Of a stretch of 14,169 nucleotides of DNA, positions 1 through 6,088 are shown piece after piece. Position numbers and translations under genes: made by a program. The notes beneath the pieces were generated by a model. The model ran no database searches. It had not been told where the DNA came from and was given only the letters and a program-made list of their open reading frames with translations. Source of the DNA: a virus (Duplodnaviria > Heunggongvirae > Uroviricota > Caudoviricetes). Every line of letters starts with the position of its first letter. The stretch's first letter is position 1. The DNA is taken from positions 1 to 14,169 of IMG/VR virus record IMGVR_UViG_2698536549_000025. One strand, given 5' to 3'.

Positions 1-1230
1 ATGAGCAGAGCACTTAACAAACTGAGTGACACACAGCTAAGGAAAATCAACGGCACACCCGCCCAAAAAACAGCCTTTCTTAATGACGGTGGAAACCTGA
101 GCGTCAGGCATTCAACCAGCGGCCTTTTAACCTGGTATTTCACATACAGGGCCGGAACGGGAAGAGGGACACAACCTGAACGCGTTAAGCTGGGAAATTA
201 TCCCGATCTGAGCCTGAAAGCAGCCAGGGAAAAAGCCGCACAGTGTCGCGCATGGCTGGCTGAGGGGAAAAATCCACGCTATGAACTGAATTACACCATG
301 CAGGAAGCGTTAAAGCCTGCAACGGTTGGCGATGCGCTCACCTACTGGCTTGAGTCGTACGCAAAGGAAAAGCGCACAGATTACGAATCACTGAAAAGCC
401 GGATCAATAAAAACATAATCATCAAAATTGGTGCTATGCCGCTGGATAAATGCGAGCTACGGCACTGGCTGGCCTGTTTTGATCAGGTGGCAAAGCGAAC
501 ACCTGTTACTGCCGGATTCTTGCTACAGACATGCAAACAGGCGCTTAAATTCTGCCGTAGGCGGCGCTATGCAATCAGCAACGTTCTGGACGATCTGAAC
601 GTGGCGGACGTTGGGAAAAAACCGGATATAAGCGAACGTGTCTTAAGCACCAAAGAACTGGGCGAGTTATTGCAGGCGCTGGATAAAAAAATATTTTCTC
701 CTTACTACGTCGCGTTAATCCGCCTCCTGATTGTCTTCGGAGCCAGGACGGTAGAACTGAGGTTATCGGAGATCAGCGAGTGGGATTTTACCGAAATGCT
801 ATGGACCGTTCCGAAGGAGCACAGCAAAACGAAGGTTGCAATATTCCGGCCCATACCGGAAGCGATCCTGCCGTTCGTCACGCGGCTGGTGGACCAGAAC
901 AGGCACACGGGCTTATTACTGGGGGAAGTGAAACAGGAGGCCAGCGTATCGCAGTACGGCAGATTAGCGCACAGGAGGCTAAAACACCCTCAATGGTCAT
1001 TGCATGACATCCGGCGCACCTTTACAACGATGCTGAATGATTTGGGCGTGGATCCTCACGTCGTGGAGCAGCTTACAGGTCATCAGATGCCAGGGATGCA
1101 ACGAGTCTATAACCACTCCCGTTATCTCGATGCGAAACGTGATGCGCTGGATATGTGGACGGAGCGGTTAGGGATACTGGCGGGAGCACATGAAAACGTA
1201 ACCACGCTACCAGTAACCAGAATAAAATAA
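1..1230 (+). CDS. int: Tyrosine recombinase / phage integrase (P4-like, with N-terminal arm-binding-type domain)
   Basis: 409 aa. N-terminus LSDTQLRKI...DGGNLSVRHS...GLLTWYFTYR resembles the P4-type integrase arm-binding domain; C-terminus has HDIRRTF (H-x-x-R) and VYNHSRY (candidate Tyr nucleophile). ATG is at base 1, so upstream sequence and attL are not visible. Confidence 0.9.
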   Translation: MSRALNKLSDTQLRKINGTPAQKTAFLNDGGNLSVRHSTSGLLTWYFTYRAGTGRGTQPERVKLGNYPDLSLKAAREKAAQCRAWLAEGKNPRYELNYTMQEALKPATVGDALTYWLESYAKEKRTDYESLKSRINKNIIIKIGAMPLDKCELRHWLACFDQVAKRTPVTAGFLLQTCKQALKFCRRRRYAISNVLDDLNVADVGKKPDISERVLSTKELGELLQALDKKIFSPYYVALIRLLIVFGARTVELRLSEISEWDFTEMLWTVPKEHSKTKVAIFRPIPEAILPFVTRLVDQNRHTGLLLGEVKQEASVSQYGRLAHRRLKHPQWSLHDIRRTFTTMLNDLGVDPHVVEQLTGHQMPGMQRVYNHSRYLDAKRDALDMWTERLGILAGAHENVTTLPVTRIK

Positions 1231-1283
1231 TTTTTTTCGTGTTTTTTCAGTATGCGCATACTGGATAAGTGCACAGATACAAC

Positions 1284-1310
1284 GTGAAACAATGTGCAAC
1301 AACGTGACAC
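1284..1310 (+). repeat. Three 10-bp-phased direct repeats (aCGTGAAac / aTGTGCAac / aCGTGACAc) between int and alpA
   Basis: GTGAA at 1284, GTGCA at 1294, GTGAC at 1304, exactly 10 bp apart; same motif family as the right-end array at 13811-13850. Confidence 0.5.
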
Positions 1311-1419
1311 AATCACGAACAAGAGGCCAAAAAGAATACAGATTTATAAGTTACTGATTTTTATTGGTTAACTGGTTTTTTATACATTAGCGAATTACGC
1401 GTTAAAGCGTGCGAAAAAA

Positions 1420-1450
1420 GGCATAAAACAAGATTTTATGCCTTTGTATT
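1420..1450 (+). terminator. Weak terminator-like hairpin (GGCATAAAA/TTTTATGCC) followed by TTTGTATT
   Basis: Inverted repeat 1420-1442 with a 5-nt loop and a T-rich tail; the stem is AT-rich, so termination efficiency is uncertain. Confidence 0.3.
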
Positions 1451-1540
1451 AACATGAATTTAAATGATTTTATCCTGATTATTCCTCTTTCTGTAAACCA
1501 TACGACATCAACATTTGCCATTCACCACACTAGCGGGAAC

Positions 1541-1570
1541 AATACGACACAATAAGACACCTGATGACTC
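1541..1570 (+). promoter_or_regulatory. Tandem 10-mer repeats AATACGACAC / AATAAGACAC (plus a degenerate third) just upstream of the alpA ribosome-binding site
   Basis: Direct tandem duplication with one mismatch at 1541-1560, ending about 25 bp before the alpA start; candidate regulator binding site in the alpA control region. Confidence 0.4.
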
Positions 1571-1594
1571 TTTAAGAAACGAAAGGGGGCAATA

Positions 1595-1783
1595 GTGTTA
1601 AGCACTGATCGGTTTATACGTGAAAAAGAATGCGAAAAGCTAACAGGCCTTAGCCGCTCATGCCGCTACCGCCTGGAAAAGGCCGGACAATTCCCATCAC
1701 GTCGTAAACTTGGCGGGCGTTCTGTTGGCTGGTCTTTATCTGAGGTTTTGGCCTGGAAGGATAGCTGCAAGGCAGTTCACTAA
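1595..1783 (+). CDS. alpA: AlpA-family phage transcriptional regulator / excisionase-like helix-turn-helix protein
   Basis: 62 aa with GTG start preceded by AGGGGG 5 nt upstream. The stretch CEKLTGLSRSCRYRLEKAGQFPSRRKLGGRSVGWSLSEVLAW matches the AlpA/Xis-type MerR-like HTH pattern; position directly after int is typical of P4-like elements and Gram-negative PICIs. Confidence 0.8.
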   Translation: MLSTDRFIREKECEKLTGLSRSCRYRLEKAGQFPSRRKLGGRSVGWSLSEVLAWKDSCKAVH

Positions 1784-1923
1784 AAAGACTGGCGGCACAC
1801 AGTCGCCACACATCCACTAATACAGAGATATAACCATGAAGATTGAATATGCGCCCGAACGTGGGCGGGGATTCGTTCGCCCTGGTGAAACTGAAAAACA
1901 ACAAAATTGGGGTTTTTCAGGCA

Positions 1924-1953
1924 TAAAAAAAGCGGCCCCGATATGGAGCCGCC
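1924..1953 (-). terminator. Rho-independent terminator, probably for the minus-strand RHH gene (possibly bidirectional with alpA)
   Basis: Stem GCGGC (1932-1936) / GCCGC (1948-1952) with the A8 run at 1924-1931 on +, which is a U8 run immediately after the hairpin on the minus strand. Confidence 0.45.
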
Positions 1954-2047
1954 TTTCTGAACAATTAACCTGCTGCGCCTTATGTGTATGTGATCCCAAA
2001 CATAAGCACGGGAATGATAGCCGCTATCAGGCTGGTGGGCAATGTAA

Positions 2048-2239
2048 TTACCCTTTGGGTTCTATGCCGCGCCGCTTTAGTTCTGCCCTGGCTAATTCTT
2101 TAAACCAGTTACCAAGGGTTAGACCGTCAGAAGTTGCAGCTTCATTTACTTGTTGGCGTAGCTCTTTACTGATTCTGATTTGGAAGGTTGGAGACCATCC
2201 CTCACCGCGTGGCGATTTATCGCGCTTTAATGTTGACAT
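2048..2239 (-). CDS. Small ribbon-helix-helix (Arc/CopG-like) DNA-binding protein, candidate repressor
   Basis: 63 aa; PTFQIRISKELRQQVNEAATSDGLTLGNWFKELARAELKR fits a beta-strand/helix/helix RHH layout. It is the only convincing minus-strand gene inside the element and is divergent from the main operon. AGGAG lies 12 nt upstream of the ATG, which is a long spacing. Confidence 0.55.
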   Translation of the reverse strand: MSTLKRDKSPRGEGWSPTFQIRISKELRQQVNEAATSDGLTLGNWFKELARAELKRRGIEPKG

Positions 2240-2261
2240 GTACGTACGTAACTCCTATTAT
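2233..2261 (+). promoter_or_regulatory. Near-consensus sigma-70 promoter (TTGACA, 17-bp spacer, TATTAT) driving rightward transcription
   Basis: TTGACA at 2233-2238, 17-bp spacer, TATTAT at 2256-2261; the -35 hexamer overlaps the start codon of the divergent RHH gene. Confidence 0.6.
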
Positions 2262-2282
2262 CATTTCCGTTACGTACGTACA
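2239..2282. promoter_or_regulatory. Operator: perfect 14-bp inverted repeat TGTACGTACGTAAC / GTTACGTACGTACA, each half containing the 10-bp palindrome TACGTACGTA
   Basis: Palindromes at 2241-2250 (inside the promoter spacer) and 2271-2280 (around the predicted +1), 30 bp centre to centre, bracketing the -10 element. Confidence 0.6.
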
Positions 2283-2371
2283 ATATCAGTAGGTACAGTA
2301 AAAAGCAAAGCCCCGCAAGTGTCGTTACCACTCGCAGGGCTTCTAACCAACAACGTAAACTAGGAGCCGTT

Positions 2372-2569
2372 ATGGTTGCCGTAAATCATACTCCACGACT
2401 AGCACACACACAAACGGCCTTTGTGTGGCGTTTTCTGGCACTGAGTGCCGGAGAATCTCAAATCATCCACGTAACCGCCTGGACGGAACGCGAAGCGCGT
2501 AACCGTTGCCCGTCCGGTTGTGTTGCTGTATTTGCCGCCCGTATTCGCCAGGGGTCACATCATGCGTAA
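2372..2569 (+). CDS. Small hypothetical protein, paralog A (FVWRF ... ARIRQG motifs)
   Basis: 65 aa with AGGAG 5 nt upstream of the ATG. Shares the FVWRF and (V/A)ARIRQG segments and its RBS context with the ORF at 2856-3029. Confidence 0.5.
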   Translation: MVAVNHTPRLAHTQTAFVWRFLALSAGESQIIHVTAWTEREARNRCPSGCVAVFAARIRQGSHHA

Positions 2570-2662
2570 AAACCGCTTGCAAAAAATTATAACGGGGCTG
2601 TATGCTTCCCCCGTCGCCCACATGGCGACCGGGTTTAGCAGCCTGAATACTGTAGCGGACAG

Positions 2663-2691
2663 CCGCTTATATTCCGATATGCGGTTTTTTT
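2663..2691 (+). terminator. Terminator-like hairpin plus T7 run inside the A-B interval
   Basis: CCGC (2663-2666) ... GCGG (2681-2684) with internal AT pairing, followed by TTTTTTT at 2685-2691. It lies inside the in-frame ORF 2562-3029, which makes coding status of that interval doubtful. Confidence 0.4.
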
Positions 2692-2855
2692 GTGTCCGTA
2701 AGCCTACCCATACCCGCATTATGGCGGGGCGTAACGGGGGAGCCTTTGCGCTCGCTGGTTCCTACAGTGCCAGTCTGCTAACCCTGTTACGTCTCGCCAC
2801 CCCGTTTAGCAGCGTAGTAGCGAGACTCCTTAAAATTACTGTAGGAGCCTTTCAC

Positions 2856-3029
2856 ATGGCTGTATCCGCACGCCCTTACTTTGTCTGGCGCTTTATGCAG
2901 TGCCAGGAAAAACAAAGATCACTCTTTACCGTCACGGCAGCAACAGAAGGCGAAGCACGCGCCCAGCTGCCGCACGCACATCTTATTTTTGTCGCCCGTA
3001 TTCGCCAGGGGGAAACCTATGCACAATAA
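2856..3029 (+). CDS. Small hypothetical protein, paralog B; could alternatively be the C-terminal part of a longer ORF starting at ATG 2562
   Basis: 58 aa from ATG 2856 with AGGAG 8 nt upstream; MAVSARPYFVWRF...FVARIRQGETYAQ parallels paralog A. No stop separates it from the upstream frame starting at 2562. Confidence 0.45.
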   Translation: MAVSARPYFVWRFMQCQEKQRSLFTVTAATEGEARAQLPHAHLIFVARIRQGETYAQ

Positions 3030-3279
3030 AACCACACCGGACGCAGCCGCCGAAGCCATCAAAACGCTGATGCACGCGCTGATTGATATTTCTGTTATCG
3101 CGGACAGGGCACATAAGCACGCCACCAGCGAAACAGAATATGCCGGGGCTTTCGTTCCTCACTCACTGGCTGTTATGCAATTTAGTGCTGATATGGCACT
3201 GAATGAGGCTAAAACCATCCTGATTACTGATTGTGAAAATGGGGGGGGGTTATGCTTGATGATCGTTTTAATTCCCTGA
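3019..3279 (+). CDS. Hypothetical protein (reading frame passes through the G9 tract)
   Basis: ATG at 3019 with AGGGGG 6 nt upstream, in the same context as ATG 2562 after paralog A. 86 aa, no recognisable motif. Ends at TGA 3277-3279 after the G9 run. Confidence 0.45.
   Translation: MHNKTTPDAAAEAIKTLMHALIDISVIADRAHKHATSETEYAGAFVPHSLAVMQFSADMALNEAKTILITDCENGGGLCLMIVLIP
3241..3249. repeat. G9 homopolymer tract at the junction of two ORFs
   Basis: Nine consecutive G at 3241-3249, immediately upstream of ATG 3252 and inside the 3' end of ORF 3019-3279. Confidence 0.95.
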
Positions 3280-3485
3280 AACAGGAATTTTCCGGCGTTC
3301 CTGATGATGCGGCTGATGCGCTTTCGTCAATGCCAGAACTTATTAGAGCGGCTTTTTTCTTACTTTCCACGAGAGAATATAAATCAACGGGGCTTGATGT
3401 ACTGAATATCGCCGCCGATTATGCGGAATATGTGGCAGAGGCTCGTTACAGAAGAAAATTTCCTGAGGATGTAAGCCATGCGTGA
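3252..3485 (+). CDS. Hypothetical protein
   Basis: 77 aa; ATG 3252 follows the G-rich tract, which can serve as a Shine-Dalgarno sequence; the stop overlaps the next start (ATGCGTGA). Confidence 0.5.
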   Translation: MLDDRFNSLKQEFSGVPDDAADALSSMPELIRAAFFLLSTREYKSTGLDVLNIAADYAEYVAEARYRRKFPEDVSHA

Positions 3486-3711
3486 TATTTACCACGAAAC
3501 AACAGATCGCGTATTTCTTGCACTTTCTCACAGTGAAAATATGATGGAAATATTGCGGATGTGCCTTGAATCCTTTGGCGATAATGAACGTAATGCAAAA
3601 AAAACGCGGATTATTACATCATTAATAACGCTTCTTGAGCCTGTAATAAATGAGTTGCAGGAAATAGAGACATTGCACGACAGATATAACGAACAGCACA
3701 CCGGAGAATAA
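3478..3711 (+). CDS. Hypothetical protein, AT-rich
   Basis: 77 aa, translationally coupled to the upstream ORF. My hand count gives roughly 38% G+C over this ORF, visibly lower than the neighbouring genes. Confidence 0.5.
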   Translation: MRDIYHETTDRVFLALSHSENMMEILRMCLESFGDNERNAKKTRIITSLITLLEPVINELQEIETLHDRYNEQHTGE

Positions 3712-3716
3712 AAATA

Positions 3717-3929
3717 ATGAAACTTAAATATTCTGGCTTAACTGCCAGTGGCAACACTCACCCTAAATTTACGCGCGGTGATATTNNNNNNNNNNNNNNN
3801 NNNNNNNNNNNNNNNNNNNNNNNNNNNNNNNNNNNCGCGCCGCATAACGTGCCCACCAGCAACGCCAGGGCACGGGCAAACATCCAGAAGCTGAAAACCA
3901 TGATTAACGGATTCAGGGGCAAGAAATGA
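3717..3929 (+). CDS. ORF interrupted by the assembly gap; true structure unknown
   Basis: The reading frame spans the N-run at 3786-3835, so length and frame across the gap cannot be trusted. The downstream part ends in an ATGA overlap with the rep start. Confidence 0.2.
   Translation: MKLKYSGLTASGNTHPKFTRGDIXXXXXXXXXXXXXXXXXAPHNVPTSNARARANIQKLKTMINGFRGKK
3786..3835. other. Assembly gap / masked region (50 N)
   Basis: Run of 50 n characters in the sequence. Confidence 1.
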
Positions 3930-5323
3930 AAAGCGCACCGAACTTAAAAAAACAGCCTTACGACAAGATGACCGAAGTCATCATTTTTGCGGGTAGTGAT
4001 GCGTGGGCACATGCGAAACAGTGGCAGGAACAGGACGGGCGACTGGCTGGCGATAATGTGCCTCCCATTGTGCTGGCTGATGATCAACTGGATGAACTGG
4101 CAGACCTGAGAATCATCGACGAGGGGCGCTATTGTGTCCGGCTGTACAAGGCAGGCCACATCAGGCCATCAAATATTAATGCCATTGCGCACAAGCTGGC
4201 GGCGGCGGGCGTAACTGATGCGAATTATTACCCCGAAGGGATACACAGCCAGAAGCGGGAGAACTGGCGCGAATATCTGGAACGGGAGCGGGGGAAAAAG
4301 CCAGGGGAAGAACACCACCAGCGAAAAACCACGCTACCGATGAGCGTTGGATCTGCCGGATACGACACGCAATTAGATTACGTGGTAAAGGGGATTATTC
4401 CGGCATCGTCGCTATGCAGCATATACGGGGCAAGCGGTTCCTATAAATCATTCCTTGCGGGTTCGTGGGCGTGTCACGTTTCCACGGGCCGCCAGTGGGG
4501 AGGCCGCAGGGTGGCGCATGGCGCTGTTCTCTATGTGGTTGGTGAAGGCGGTATCGGCGTTCCGCGTCGTGTAAAAGCCTGGGAGGTTGTGCACGGTGAG
4601 CAGGTGAAAAATCTGTATCTGGTAAACCGTCCAGTTTTTCCGGCTGTCCCGCTTGATGTTGATGAACTGGTTATCGCTGCCCGTCAGGTGGAGCGGGAAA
4701 CGGGTAAACCTGTACGCATGATTATTCTTGATACTCTGGCGCGTTGCTTTGGTGGCAATGATGAAAATGATTCCCGTGATATGGGGGCGTTTATCCGTGG
4801 GTGTGACGAGCTTAAACGGCGCACAGGGGCCACGGTGCTGGTGGTTCACCATTCCGGCAAGGATGAGACGAAAGGCGCGCGCGGTTCCAGTGCATTTCGT
4901 GCTTCGCTGGATGCTGAATACCGGATACGCAGGGAGGACGCAGGAAGCGAAGCGCTGGTTATCTCATGCACCAAAATGAAGGACGCGGAGGAACTCAAAG
5001 AGGCTGCCTATGATTTGCGGGTGGTGGAGCTTTTTACCGACGCTGACGGGGAGTTAATCACGTCGCTGGTGGTGGTGGATAAGCCGCGCCCTCCCGTTGA
5101 ACTGGAGCGCATCGAGGAGGCAGGCAACAAGACGGAAAACCATACCGCACTATGGGGGTGCATCCGTTCACGCACACAGAACGGCGACAAGTGCACGATC
5201 CCGCTGTTACGTGATGACATGAAACGGCTTGGGTATGACGTGAAAAATATGCGGCGATGGTTAGCCAAACTGGAAAAAGACGCCGTGATTTACATTGATG
5301 GTGATGATGTAGGACCACTGTAA
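3926..5323 (+). CDS. Replication initiator with RecA-like AAA_25 ATPase core (RepA/DnaB-like helicase family); candidate pri-rep equivalent
   Basis: 465 aa. Walker A-like YGASGSYKSF, Walker B-like RMIILDTL and VLVVHHSGKDE are typical of AAA_25-type RepA-like ATPases; N-terminal (~150 aa) and C-terminal (~120 aa) extra domains. AGGGGC precedes the ATG; iterons follow the stop codon. Confidence 0.85.
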   Translation: MKSAPNLKKQPYDKMTEVIIFAGSDAWAHAKQWQEQDGRLAGDNVPPIVLADDQLDELADLRIIDEGRYCVRLYKAGHIRPSNINAIAHKLAAAGVTDANYYPEGIHSQKRENWREYLERERGKKPGEEHHQRKTTLPMSVGSAGYDTQLDYVVKGIIPASSLCSIYGASGSYKSFLAGSWACHVSTGRQWGGRRVAHGAVLYVVGEGGIGVPRRVKAWEVVHGEQVKNLYLVNRPVFPAVPLDVDELVIAARQVERETGKPVRMIILDTLARCFGGNDENDSRDMGAFIRGCDELKRRTGATVLVVHHSGKDETKGARGSSAFRASLDAEYRIRREDAGSEALVISCTKMKDAEELKEAAYDLRVVELFTDADGELITSLVVVDKPRPPVELERIEEAGNKTENHTALWGCIRSRTQNGDKCTIPLLRDDMKRLGYDVKNMRRWLAKLEKDAVIYIDGDDVGPL

Positions 5324-5525
5324 AAAGTGAGTAGCAAAAGTGAGTAATGGTGAGGTTTTTACAAAATATTAACACGATTACTCACTTTCTCACCTGTATA
5401 CATGCTCAAAAGTGAGGAGTAAAAAAATGCTTATGAAACATGCATATATAAAACACGAAAATCTCAAGCGAGACGAAGTGAGACGCGTTAAAAAGTGAGG
5501 CGTAAAAGTGAGCGCGAGTGAGGAG
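5322..5525 (+). repeat. Iteron array (core AGTGAG, mostly AAAAGTGAG) with AT-rich spacers; candidate origin of replication
   Basis: Direct copies at about 5322, 5336, 5349, 5408, 5475, 5491, 5504 and 5517 and inverted copies at 5381 and 5389 (CTCACT/CTCACC); AT-rich stretches at 5355-5380 and 5420-5460; immediately 3' of the rep gene. Confidence 0.65.
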
Positions 5526-5534
5526 ATAACCAAA

Positions 5535-5777
5535 ATGCGCAGAGACAGAACAGCGCCAAAATATAAAGCGTTAGACATGACAGAGCACGCTTTAAAGGTG
5601 GCAATCAGAACGATAGACCGCCACGCGGGGGAAGGATACGCGAAGGAACATCCCGACCTGATAAGCGCATTCATGACCACAGCGGCGGCAAACTTTGCCA
5701 CGCTGACAGAACGGGAGATTGCCGAAGCGGAACAGGTAACAACAATCAACGTTAAAACCGGAGAGGTGGAATCATGA
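5535..5777 (+). CDS. Hypothetical protein (the track's GTG start at 5508 lies inside the iteron array; ATG 5535 with GAGGAG 9 nt upstream is preferred)
   Basis: About 80 aa, acidic and Ala-rich, no recognisable motif; the stop overlaps the next start. Confidence 0.5.
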   Translation: MRRDRTAPKYKALDMTEHALKVAIRTIDRHAGEGYAKEHPDLISAFMTTAAANFATLTEREIAEAEQVTTINVKTGEVES

Positions 5778-6079
5778 GCGAACCAAAATTTGGTGAAAAA
5801 TTTTACAAGCACAACGGACGGATCACGATTCTGCAAATAAGCGCAGCTACACCAGGCTGGTGGGTTGAAACAGACGAAGGATCCTCACCCGTGGCATCAT
5901 GGGCGCTTTGTGTGCTTAGTTACCCTGACCGCGATGTGTATCAGGATATTCTGCCTGTGATATCCACAGACAAAGGCATGAAACCCGTAGACATCAAAAG
6001 CATGGGTTTTCAGTGCGTAATGCTCACTGAAAAAATGATGGAAGAGATGAAAAAGAACAACGCCGGATCGCTTCACTGA
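5774..6079 (+). CDS. Hypothetical protein
   Basis: 101 aa, ATGA overlap with the upstream ORF; no motif recognised. Confidence 0.5.
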   Translation: MSEPKFGEKFYKHNGRITILQISAATPGWWVETDEGSSPVASWALCVLSYPDRDVYQDILPVISTDKGMKPVDIKSMGFQCVMLTEKMMEEMKKNNAGSLH

Positions 6080-6088
6080 GGTGGCAAT

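Follow-up and report, generated by a model that had tools for sequence, protein, structure and literature searches.

Background

The immI region of phages P1 and P7 is arranged in the order P51 - a1 b1 - c4 - a2 b2 - icd - ant1/ant2, and Citron and Schuster are said to have reported in 1990 that the b sequences set specificity in P1/P7 heteroimmunity. The immunity region of P4 runs seqA - CI RNA - seqC, with kil nested in eta; one account covers the eta/kil/CI mechanism of P4 and CI/seqA homologues in PICIs (PMC10111431). In the isrK - orf45 - anrP region of Gifsy-1 (Salmonella), IsrK is a SeqA homologue, a translation-coupled ORF lies over a processed RNA, and the next gene depends, via overlapping stop and start codons, on this ORF being translated and not on what it encodes; IsrK activates orf45 translation in trans, and the downstream gene is antirepressor-like (PMC4825925). 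The Icd protein of P1 binds FtsZ, with core residues 12-51 (PMC11897509).

Here, we describe a region of comparable organization in a 14,169-nt stretch of a Caudoviricetes genome (IMG/VR record IMGVR_UViG_2698536549_000025, positions 1 to 14,169), hereafter the window. We consider it likely that the early operon of a satellite of the capsid-forming PICI (cf-PICI) type starts here, and that its first part holds an antisense-RNA immunity module of the P1 immI/P4 CI type flanked by two Icd-like genes. The coordinates of all features are collected in Table 1.

Table 1. Features of the early-operon front, in window coordinates
Feature	Position	Strand	Details
AlpA-like ORF	1595-1783		Similarity to the HTH regulator of locus L050 annotated by PGAP
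Small ribbon-helix-helix-like protein (YlcI/YnfO / HicB-like)	2048..2239	-	Divergent from the icd operon
Sigma-70 promoter-like site, 5' of icd1	2233..2261	+	TTGACA-17-TATTAT; 11/12 consensus matches
Perfect 13-bp inverted repeat around the -10 hexamer	2240..2281		GTACGTACGTAAC (2240-2252) and GTTACGTACGTAC (2269-2281); read from sequence
Leader hairpin, followed by UCUAACC	2308..2343	+	Predicted fold
icd1, Icd-like protein, 65 aa, first gene of the operon	2372..2569	+	NF033153, 64.9 bits
19-nt block, copy 1	2536..2554	+	CGCCCGTATTCGCCAGGGG; encodes ARIRQG; AGGGG end is the SD for ATG 2562
Long eta-like open frame, 155 aa	2562..3029	+	ATG overlaps the icd1 stop (2567-2569), by 8 nt
Candidate internal promoter	2577..2606	+	TTGCAA (2577-2582), 18 nt, TATGCT (2601-2606); inferred
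Upstream C4 target region	2600..2649	+	a1 TTAGCAG 2635-2641 (within the match); b1 ACTGTAG 2649-2655
IsrK/SeqA-like RNA element	2613..2691	+	Terminator hairpin 2663-2684; T7 run 2685-2691
C4 antisense RNA gene	2717..2804	+	Rfam RF01695, 71.5 bits against a gathering score of 45; full-length match
C4 loop b'	2759-2769	+	
C4 a'	2775-2781	+	Single-stranded
Downstream C4 targets	2806..2847	+	a2 TTAGCAG 2806-2812; b2 ACTGTAGGAG 2838-2847, containing the icd2 SD
icd2 (kil-like), Icd-like protein, 57 aa	2856..3029	+	NF033153, 52.9 bits; occupies the 3' end of the long frame, in frame
19-nt block, copy 2	2993..3011	+	CGCCCGTATTCGCCAGGGG; ends in the SD for ATG 3019
Next cistron, 86 aa	3019..3279	+	ORF; ATG overlaps the icd2 end by 11 nt

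The window element and its relatives

In addition to the AlpA-like ORF, the window carries genes for an integrase and a RepA-type AAA_25 helicase (RepA gene, 3926-5323), along with a head and packaging set comprising the major capsid protein, protease, portal, connector, HNH, TerS and TerL; no tail genes were found among the ORFs scanned within the 14-kb window. An integrase, an alpA-like gene, a rep gene and head and packaging genes of its own, with tail genes missing, is the gene content by which cf-PICIs are defined (10.1101/2022.09.08.507074), and on this definition the genes within the 14-kb window identify it as a satellite of the cf-PICI type.

Among its closest described counterparts are cf-PICIs of the EcCIEDL933 type, which it resembles in its capsid and packaging gene set and in a backbone that, from int and the alpA-like gene by way of icd1 and the small ORFs to the RepA helicase gene, is 91-95% identical to that of an Escherichia coli O157:H7 island. 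The otherwise collinear island differs in that it contains a single Icd-like gene, corresponding to icd1, and no C4 RNA; a 70-aa hypothetical gene takes the place of window positions 2553-3017, where the window has the eta-like frame, C4 and icd2. The repressor and operator module of the window is likewise unlike that of the island. Further comparisons were made with 11 closely related satellite loci, whose open frames are non-independent observations.

Two Icd-like genes

The original prediction described two small ORFs sharing FVWRF and ARIRQG segments and similar ribosome-binding contexts, interpreted as an internally duplicated cassette of unknown function. Both ORFs and both motifs are present where they had been placed, with the correction that the second encodes 57 aa plus a stop codon, not 58 aa. 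Their function can be narrowed considerably: residues 17-60 of icd1 and 9-51 of icd2 each match, over the full length of the profile, the 48-residue domain NF033153 (NCBIfam "host cell division inhibitor Icd-like"; curated cut-off, 25 bits), and the profile scores place both products in the phage Icd/Kil family of cell-division inhibitors. Both span the equivalent of the P1 Icd core and, in the alignment, retain the arginine of FxWRF, the glutamate of TE and the AR pair. The pairwise alignment proposed as a check on the duplication bears out homology (22 of 49 residues identical, 45%; BLASTP E = 5e-12), and the two genes are paralogues; icd2 is about as near to P1/P7 Icd (49-50% identity) as to icd1.

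A tblastn search of the phage collection with icd2 matched only P1-like Icd and did not find P4 Kil, and the link to P4 was obtained solely via the NF033153 profile and Rfam. A protein-pattern scan of genome contigs returned a single Shigella locus, where a C4 match was absent. The predicted likeness of the ribosome-binding contexts resides in TAGGAGCC, which precedes both starts (2361-2368 for icd1 and 2842-2849 for icd2). At icd2 this sequence makes up the 3' portion of b2, a target of C4; at icd1, where it does not covary with C4, it is an ordinary strong SD.

A shared block that joins each Icd-like gene to the next cistron

The identical stretch near the ends of the two genes, predicted as 18 bp, is 19 nt long, and the start codons that follow it, correctly located at 2562 and 3019, each lie 7 nt, rather than 6 nt, past the shared AGGGG and overlap the end of the respective Icd-like gene. 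When codons were drawn from the codon usage of the window itself with both proteins held fixed, 2 of 3000 trials produced a shared run of at least 18 nt and none produced a 19-nt run; the same codon is used at 6/6 ARIRQG residues, compared with 6 of the 14 conserved degenerate residues elsewhere in the alignment. The 19-nt identity thus exceeds chance.

The similarity was also predicted to continue through the gene end, SD and next start, and this junction is indeed kept in 11/11 satellite loci, with seven different downstream sequences. Synonymous variants of the block are present in relatives, and at a CGC/CGT variant within it, copies 1 and 2 agree with each other in 9 of the 11 loci. Many E. 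coli matches stop at window position 2554/2555, and homology to the O157 island breaks at 2552 and restarts at 3018. The gene at 3019, which produced no family match in profile searches, is also present in O157, where another gene precedes it and the two are linked by a junction of this kind, CAGGGG-N7-ATGCACAATAA. The 19-mer is a joint, combining the last residues of the Icd domain (ARIRQG) with CAGGGG as the SD of whichever cistron follows, and the positions at which homology starts and stops mark it as a mosaic breakpoint and boundary of module recombination.

Control region upstream of icd1

The small protein encoded divergently from the icd operon has weak, below-cut-off matches to NF041551 YlcI_YnfO_N (20.7 bits) and Pfam HicB (18.2 bits), and PGAP calls a YlcI/YnfO family protein at the equivalent position in locus L002; it is a putative repressor of the icd operon promoter. 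The inverted repeat around the -10 hexamer is a candidate operator, and the repeats at the equivalent position differ in relatives. As judged by eye, without a count of pairs, the stem of the leader hairpin is kept despite two-sided changes in five loci (L002, L007, L016, L020 and L035). The same hairpin also scores as a terminator-like site on the minus strand.

The C4 RNA and its targets

Between the two Icd-like genes lies a C4 RNA gene that was not part of the original prediction. It is preceded by two weaker matches, one to Rfam RF03163 (c4-a1b1) at 45.5 bits (E = 4e-10), just under the gathering score of 46.7, with b1 overlapping the last base of the match, and the other to RF01394 (IsrK) at 35.7 bits, under the gathering score of 50. 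In both, positions, hairpins and terminator are as in the models, and the a1b1 element of P4 is also just sub-threshold at 44.1 bits; the fold of positions 2600-2700 has a z score of -4.15. Over the 190 nt from 2625 to 2814, the window is about 80% identical in DNA sequence to the P1/P7 c4 region. The candidate internal promoter is weak (8/12 consensus positions) and was not called by the promoter scan; its predicted start at about 2613 is also where the IsrK-like match begins, and its hexamers are collinear with TTGACC-17-TATAGT located 5' of a1/b1 in P7.

The duplex between b' and the a2/b2 region has a predicted energy of -21.9 kcal/mol, a value reached by 0 of 300 shuffles. Across loci, b1, b' and b2 covary as five types (ACTGTAG, ACTACAG, AAATTGG and ACTTTGG, with GATTGTG in P7), and cognate b'-b2 duplexes range from -11.7 to -16.4 kcal/mol, compared with -0.8 to -10.0 kcal/mol for non-cognate ones. 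Judged by eye, a' also covaries with a2 in the second modules of loci L006 and L029. The C4 loop is complementary to b1 and, over the icd2 SD, to b2, and these patterns suggest that the icd2 start is C4-controlled. An exact a1..b1 pattern scan of the genome contigs gave no match.

The icd1 ribosome-binding site CTAGGAGCC was considered as a second C4 target and rejected: its duplex with the C4 loop reaches only -5.8 kcal/mol, the same site occurs alongside three C4 loop types, and other sites occur alongside one and the same loop type. Because the site does not covary and the duplex is weak, icd1 is not a C4 target. An Rfam search of positions 2150-3150 (E <= 1) found no degenerate C4 gene 5' of icd1; a second C4 gene of this kind is present in loci L006, L013 and L029.

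An open frame across the RNA genes

The long frame, which appears in the ORF listing as 2520-3029, extends over all of the RNA features, from a1/b1 and the terminator hairpin to C4 and a2/b2, and shares its reading frame with icd2; that the frame after copy 1 reads into copy 2 had likewise not been predicted. It contains 0 stops, compared with 7 and 6 in the other two frames, and 1.9% of shuffles contain none. The icd frame is free of stops in the window module, in P4 eta and in an independent second module of L006 (shuffle chances of 0.019, 0.008 and 0.004, respectively), the remaining frames of those three modules contain 3 to 10 stops, and the icd frame of P7 contains 4. The frame is open and in frame in 11/11 related satellite loci; in four of these, paired -1/+1 indels alter 34 codons and keep the length of 294 nt. 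In the AAATTGG-type loci, the middle 34 codons are wholly different.

The N-terminal 98 residues of the long frame are not conserved as a protein, and Phage_ASH (PF10554) gave no match at E <= 1 for either 2562-2855 or 2562-3029; elsewhere, the same profile scores 82.2 bits with P4 Eta, and 44 and 48 bits with the L006 and L029 modules, respectively.

Comparison with P4, P1/P7 and Gifsy-1

The order of elements in the window is the same as in the P4 immunity region. In both, an upstream stop meets the start of the long ORF (at the sequence level in 11/11 loci), followed by an a1/b1 (seqA)/IsrK-like element with its terminator and a C4-family RNA; the long ORF extends over the immunity RNA and ends in frame with a nested Icd-like gene, whose stop overlaps the next start. 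The same models recover the P4 elements: CI RNA scores as C4 (74.9 bits), with IsrK and c4-a1b1 matches upstream of it, and Kil, nested in Eta, matches NF033153 at 76.1 bits. The window differs from P4 in that the upstream coupled gene is icd1 rather than the vis/alpA-like ORF88, the long ORF lacks the Phage_ASH match of Eta, and the sequence of the RNA region resembles that of P1/P7 more than that of P4. In the P4-type arrangement, translating the long ORF prevents the Rho-dependent termination on which immunity relies, and a constitutive promoter is located within this ORF; the window has the weak candidate at 2577-2606 in that place. The element as a whole is also a capsid-encoding PICI, whereas P4-like satellites carry sid/psu/delta.

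With P1/P7 immI, the window shares, besides the DNA identity over the c4 region, the c4-to-icd spacing (equal to the P7 layout, with a 51-nt gap), the position of b2 over the icd SD, a specificity that lies in the b sequences, and an icd stop overlapping the next start behind a CAGGGG-type SD. Downstream of icd2, however, the ant1/ant2 antirepressor is absent, with the ORF at 3019-3279 in its place; the upstream control region of the window has no C1 operator and a different inverted repeat; and the additional Icd-like gene upstream and the open frame across c4 set the window apart. The resemblance to Gifsy-1 consists in an IsrK/SeqA-like RNA element with a terminator and in predicted read-through into an ORF over a C4-like RNA; it differs in that no Icd-like gene is involved there, and the IsrK match of the window is weak.

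Alternative readings of the locus

A purely P1-type arrangement, in which every transcript would be subject to C4 repression of icd2 and, by polarity, of the genes downstream, with icd1 an unregulated extra division inhibitor and the frame from 2562 incidental, draws on the fact that the c4 region is nearest in DNA to those of P1 and P7, which have no open frame across c4, and that the long frame bears no conserved protein signature and has a middle segment that differs in the AAATTGG-type loci. We nonetheless judge it unlikely, given the stop-free icd frame of three independent satellite modules, the AGGGG-preceded ATG kept over the icd1 stop in all 11 loci and the paired indels that restore the frame. 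The converse possibility, that 2562-3029 yields one 155-aa Icd-like protein and nothing else, with the ORF at 2856 no independent gene, corresponds to the annotation of the whole frame by PGAP in L002 and fits an open frame coupled to icd1. It appears very improbable: the SD 8 nt 5' of ATG 2856 is the covarying b2, which is sensible only if initiation occurs there; icd of P7 and kil of P4 start at the equivalent position; and the N-terminal part of the frame is not conserved as protein.

The relationship between the two Icd-like genes bears on the duplication originally proposed. We give hardly any credence to the idea that a cassette of gene plus RBS was recently duplicated in tandem at this locus, with the 19-mer as its remnant or as a product of gene conversion: an amino acid identity of just 45%, synonymous sites that mostly differ outside the block and synonymous variants in the block itself among relatives all speak against it, even though the identical 19-mer, the similar ribosome-binding site and start (TAGGAGCC ... 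ATGG) and the concordance of the CGC/CGT variant in 9 of 11 loci would be in keeping with such an event. Copy 2, moreover, is linked to the P1-like c4 region and is missing from the otherwise collinear O157 island, where the copy-number comparison recovers copy 1 alone. The low identity of icd1 and icd2, the P1/P7-like c4 region accompanying copy 2 and the presence of only copy 1 in the island are more readily accounted for if a c4-icd cassette was inserted as a module beside a resident icd gene.

Discussion

If the region is the antisense-RNA immunity module proposed here, P1 immI and P4 eta/kil suggest by analogy how it would operate. While the satellite is resident, the weak internal promoter at about 2577-2606 would give rise to short IsrK/SeqA-like transcripts and to the C4 precursor, which RNase P may process into a stable RNA of about 77 nt; C4 RNA would pair with a2/b2, blocking translation of icd2 and, via polarity, silencing the downstream replication genes. 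Firing of the operator-controlled promoter at 2233-2261 would lead to translation of icd1 and re-initiation at ATG 2562, so that ribosomes cross the target sites. We propose that translation through these sites would make the transcript insensitive to C4 and to premature termination and thereby allow the Icd proteins and replication genes to be expressed.

A more specific scenario, which we regard as possible but, taken as a whole, short of probable, is that a P1-type c4-icd cassette was converted to P4 logic. A "conveyor" ORF, whose amino acid sequence would be immaterial, would begin at the stop codon of the icd gene upstream and take ribosomes over the antisense RNA gene and its targets, restricting escape from C4 to transcripts made from the regulated promoter; the 19-nt ARIRQG/SD block would serve as a portable joint for plugging in modules, including c4-icd cassettes of other specificities; and the Pfam Ash family would largely represent translated RNA genes rather than a protein domain.

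The region is an ordinary control region of a known kind; the analysis extends known mechanisms to another element and leaves the current understanding of such systems unchanged. It has consequences for annotation, in that the product listed by PGAP as a 155-aa "Icd-like protein" is read across an RNA gene and masks the 57-aa gene nested in it, and "Ash family protein" calls coincide with IsrK and C4 RNA elements. For the satellite itself, an RNA-based immunity switch of the P1/P4 type, in place of or alongside a protein repressor, probably silences and then turns on a capsid-forming element. Four C4 specificities occur on nearly identical satellite backbones, which suggests that co-resident satellites avoid cross-repression, as P1 and P7 do.

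Icd-family genes and their conserved junctions

The region is almost certainly composed of two Icd-family genes, a C4 antisense RNA with covarying icd2 targets, a long open frame in which the second gene is nested, and conserved gene junctions, as read from the sequence. Both genes of the originally proposed cassette (icd1, copy 1; icd2, copy 2) were recovered in place, icd1 with its 65 aa and icd2 with 57 aa plus a stop codon rather than 58 aa, and the motifs FVWRF and ARIRQG are common to both; the two proteins align with 45% identity over 49 residues (E = 5e-12). Their function had been listed as unknown, but a profile search assigns both to NCBIfam NF033153 ("host cell division inhibitor Icd-like protein"), at 64.9 bits for icd1 and 52.9 bits for icd2 (cut-off 25) and in each case over all 48 profile residues. 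Icd of phage P1 was reported to bind FtsZ and thereby block Z-ring formation, with residues 12-51 being sufficient (PMC11897509), and the equivalent region is present in icd1 and icd2. Most Enterobacter satellites have been described as carrying Icd-like genes, among them cf-PICIs where YlcI/YnfO genes lie alongside (PMC13612085), and two adjacent Icd-like genes are also annotated by RefSeq in related E. coli loci.

Features of the icd/C4 region and its surroundings
Feature	Position	Note
Tyrosine integrase	1-1230	
AlpA-like ORF	1595-1783	62 aa, GTG start
RHH-like gene, divergent	2048-2239	minus strand
Near-consensus promoter	2233-2261	TTGACA-17-TATTAT
Perfect 13-bp inverted repeat	2240-2281	GTACGTACGTAAC / GTTACGTACGTAC, around -10 hexamer
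icd1	2372-2569	
19-nt block, copy 1	2536-2554	CGCCCGTATTCGCCAGGGG
Long frame	2562-3029	
a1/b1 target element	2600-2649	5' of C4; RF03163, 45.5 vs gathering 46.7, permissive threshold
IsrK/SeqA-like RNA	2613-2691	5' of C4; RF01394, 35.7 vs gathering 50, permissive threshold
C4 antisense RNA, full-length	2717-2804	Rfam RF01695, 71.5 bits vs gathering score 45
C4 loop	2759-2769	UUCCUACAGUG
Downstream C4 target	2838-2847	ACTGTAGGAG, includes icd2 SD
icd2	2856-3029	
19-nt block, copy 2	2993-3011	CGCCCGTATTCGCCAGGGG
RepA-type helicase	3926-5323	

The identical stretch near the 3' ends of the genes is present as described and proved to be 19 nt long, not 18; in both copies the next ATG (2562 and 3019) overlaps the icd gene end and lies 7 nt, not 6 nt, after the shared AGGGG. 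When both proteins were held fixed and codons were resampled from the window's own usage, a common run of at least 18 nt arose in 2 of 3000 trials and a 19-nt run in none, and the same codon is used at 6/14 conserved degenerate residues outside the block vs 6/6 inside. The shared block thus exceeds what protein conservation by itself predicts.

Across 11 closely related satellite loci, GCC CGT ATT CG(C/T) CAG GG(G/A) is kept in both paralogues with a few synonymous variants, and in every case the following cistron has its start codon overlapping the icd stop, with at least seven different sequences found 3' of icd2. Part of 2372-3029 is matched in 930 of 5426 complete E. coli genomes, only 68 of which match at least 80% of it, and numerous matches stop at 2554/2555, the end of the block. 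An island of E. coli O157:H7 shares 91-95% identity with the window over 88-2044, 2300-2552, and 3018-5223, with another gene replacing 2553-3017; this gene terminates in CAGGGGATGCTTTATGCACAATAA, and icd2 in CAGGGGGAAACCTATGCACAATAA. No C4 RNA was found in this island. The block thus closes the Icd domain, provides the SD for the next cistron, and marks a boundary between modules. The CGC/CGT variant agrees between copies in 9 of the 11 loci, which are non-independent, and gene conversion between the copies may contribute too. In the same O157:H7 island (L050), RefSeq lists an "Icd-like protein, incomplete" pseudogene at 1754-2347 that overlaps the opposite-strand RHH-like gene; it appears to consist only of the long open frame that lies 5' of the genuine 65-aa icd gene, and the call is likely an annotation artefact.

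A C4 RNA with covarying targets

Between the two genes, the interval 2600-2700 folds with z = -4.15, and a hairpin (2663-2684) followed by a T7 run closes the IsrK-like element. The C4 loop is complementary to the downstream target, forming a duplex of -21.9 kcal/mol that was reached by 0/300 shuffles, and also to ACTGTAG at 2649-2655. Pattern scanning across viral contigs yielded 45 loci, 10 satellite-type and the remainder P1/P7-type. Among the satellite-type loci, one E. coli chromosomal locus (L002), and P7, the loop and its upstream and downstream targets covary in five types, with b cores ACTGTAG (window, L002, L016), ACTACAG (L006, L012, L020, L035), AAATTGG (L007, L013, L029, L036), ACTTTGG (L046), and GATTGTG (P7 type). 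Cognate duplexes of the loop with the downstream target b2 range from -11.7 to -16.4 kcal/mol, and all non-cognate pairings are weaker.

The icd1 RBS, AAACTAGGAGCC, is identical across loci of three loop types, and one loop type also occurs with other icd1 RBSs. C4 is accordingly predicted to target icd2, not icd1. The similarity of the RBS contexts stood as a likeness in TAGGAGCC, but not as common regulation, because the icd1 RBS is independent of loop type; it may instead stem from a shared origin of the two translation-initiation regions.

Three related loci (L006, L029, L013) carry a second IsrK and C4 module further upstream, giving tandem C4 genes with differing a and b sequences (2958-3621, 2642-3308, and 7631-8294 on the minus strand, respectively). 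The first C4, together with an IsrK element, is inserted in an icd gene just after or before FVWRF, leaving three consecutive Icd-related coding segments.

The long frame compared with P1, P7, and P4

The frame from ATG 2562 is stop-free for 98 codons and in frame with icd2, so the long frame is a single 155-codon ORF with icd2 nested terminally; PGAP calls it as one 155-aa Icd-like protein. The main rival to the working model given below is pure P1-type control, with the open frame incidental. Window 2625-2814 is ~80% identical in DNA to the P1 and P7 c4 region, and the c4-to-icd start distance, ~50 nt, is equal in the window and P7. The other two frames contain 7 and 6 stops, and 1.9% of shuffles lack stops in the icd frame. 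The frame is open in 11/11 satellite loci, including the four AAATTGG-type loci, in which the terminator hairpin carries a -1 indel and the C4 loop a +1 indel; these wholly change 34 codons, yet the frame stays open and its length remains 294 nt. In the second upstream modules, an open frame likewise runs from the icd N-terminus into the next icd gene (L006: 0 stops, 4 and 10 in the other frames). The P4 Eta frame also has 0 stops (3 and 6 in the others), whereas the corresponding P7 frame has 4. Thus, the open frame across the RNA gene recurs in satellite modules and not in the phage module.

In P4 (NC_001609), the CI RNA gives a Rfam C4 match of 74.9 bits, with IsrK and c4-a1b1 matches located before it; the Eta ORF spans the RNA matches and ends with the 65-aa Kil (NF033153, 76.1 bits), which shares 8 nt at its stop with the start of epsilon. 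The ORF88 stop is annotated at 8764-8766. The eta start codons reportedly adjoin it, at about 8767 (Forti et al. 1999). The icd/C4 region has the eta/kil architecture of P4 carrying P1-like c4 sequence. A Phage_ASH (PF10554) match to Eta residues 37-161 (P4 8330-8704, minus strand) covers the c4-a1b1, IsrK, and C4 matches, and the Ash-positive ORFs of the L006 and L029 second modules likewise coincide with RNA matches; for the most part, the "Ash protein family" may represent translated conserved RNA genes.

The surrounding satellite

The predicted gene content, which further includes small ORFs downstream of the icd/C4 region, SSB, major capsid, protease, portal, head closure, adaptor, HNH, TerS, and TerL genes, matches the published description of capsid-forming PICIs. 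The AlpA-like ORF has no NCBIfam match at E <= 0.01; the O157 island encodes an almost identical protein, which PGAP calls a "helix-turn-helix transcriptional regulator". The inverted repeat adjoins the start of the divergent RHH-like gene, and in the O157 island, otherwise collinear, unrelated sequence takes the place of the whole putative repressor/operator segment (2045-2299).

The icd1 leader (2308-2343) forms a hairpin followed by UCUAACC, with the stem retained in related loci despite two-sided changes; read on the minus strand, it resembles a terminator with a T-rich run after it. A short motif, ACAACGTGAMACAAT / CAATACGACACAATAAGACAC, occurs several times at 1262-1320 and 1535-1560, 3' of the integrase gene and 5' of the AlpA-like ORF, and its copies may be arm-type or regulator binding sites. 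A G9 tract (3241-3249), an SD-like run ahead of ATG 3252, lies where ORFs 3019-3279 and 3252-3485 meet; L002 has G8 here and the O157:H7 island G7, and with G7 the two ORFs are fused into one of 154 aa. Phase variation, a natural fused/split polymorphism, or sequencing error could account for this.

Working model

All components belong to families already described, and PMC10111431 notes CI/seqA homologues in PICIs. In the literature searched, we found no description of an upstream coupling partner that is Icd-like, of an eta-like frame without the Ash signature, or of four specificities on near-identical cf-PICI backbones. For P4, the summary in that paper, whose primary source is Forti et al. 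1999, describes a constitutive promoter within eta whose transcripts give rise to CI RNA and terminate early via CI/seqA pairing, with Kil translated on read-through only; Eta is translated only when transcription comes from a regulated promoter further upstream, in coupling with the preceding gene, and its translation prevents termination (PMC10111431). By analogy with P1 and P4, in transcripts from a putative internal promoter C4 would silence icd2 and the downstream replication genes. In those from the operator-controlled promoter, ribosomes would move from icd1 into the long frame and so permit escape from C4, a P4-like step that we consider moderately probable.
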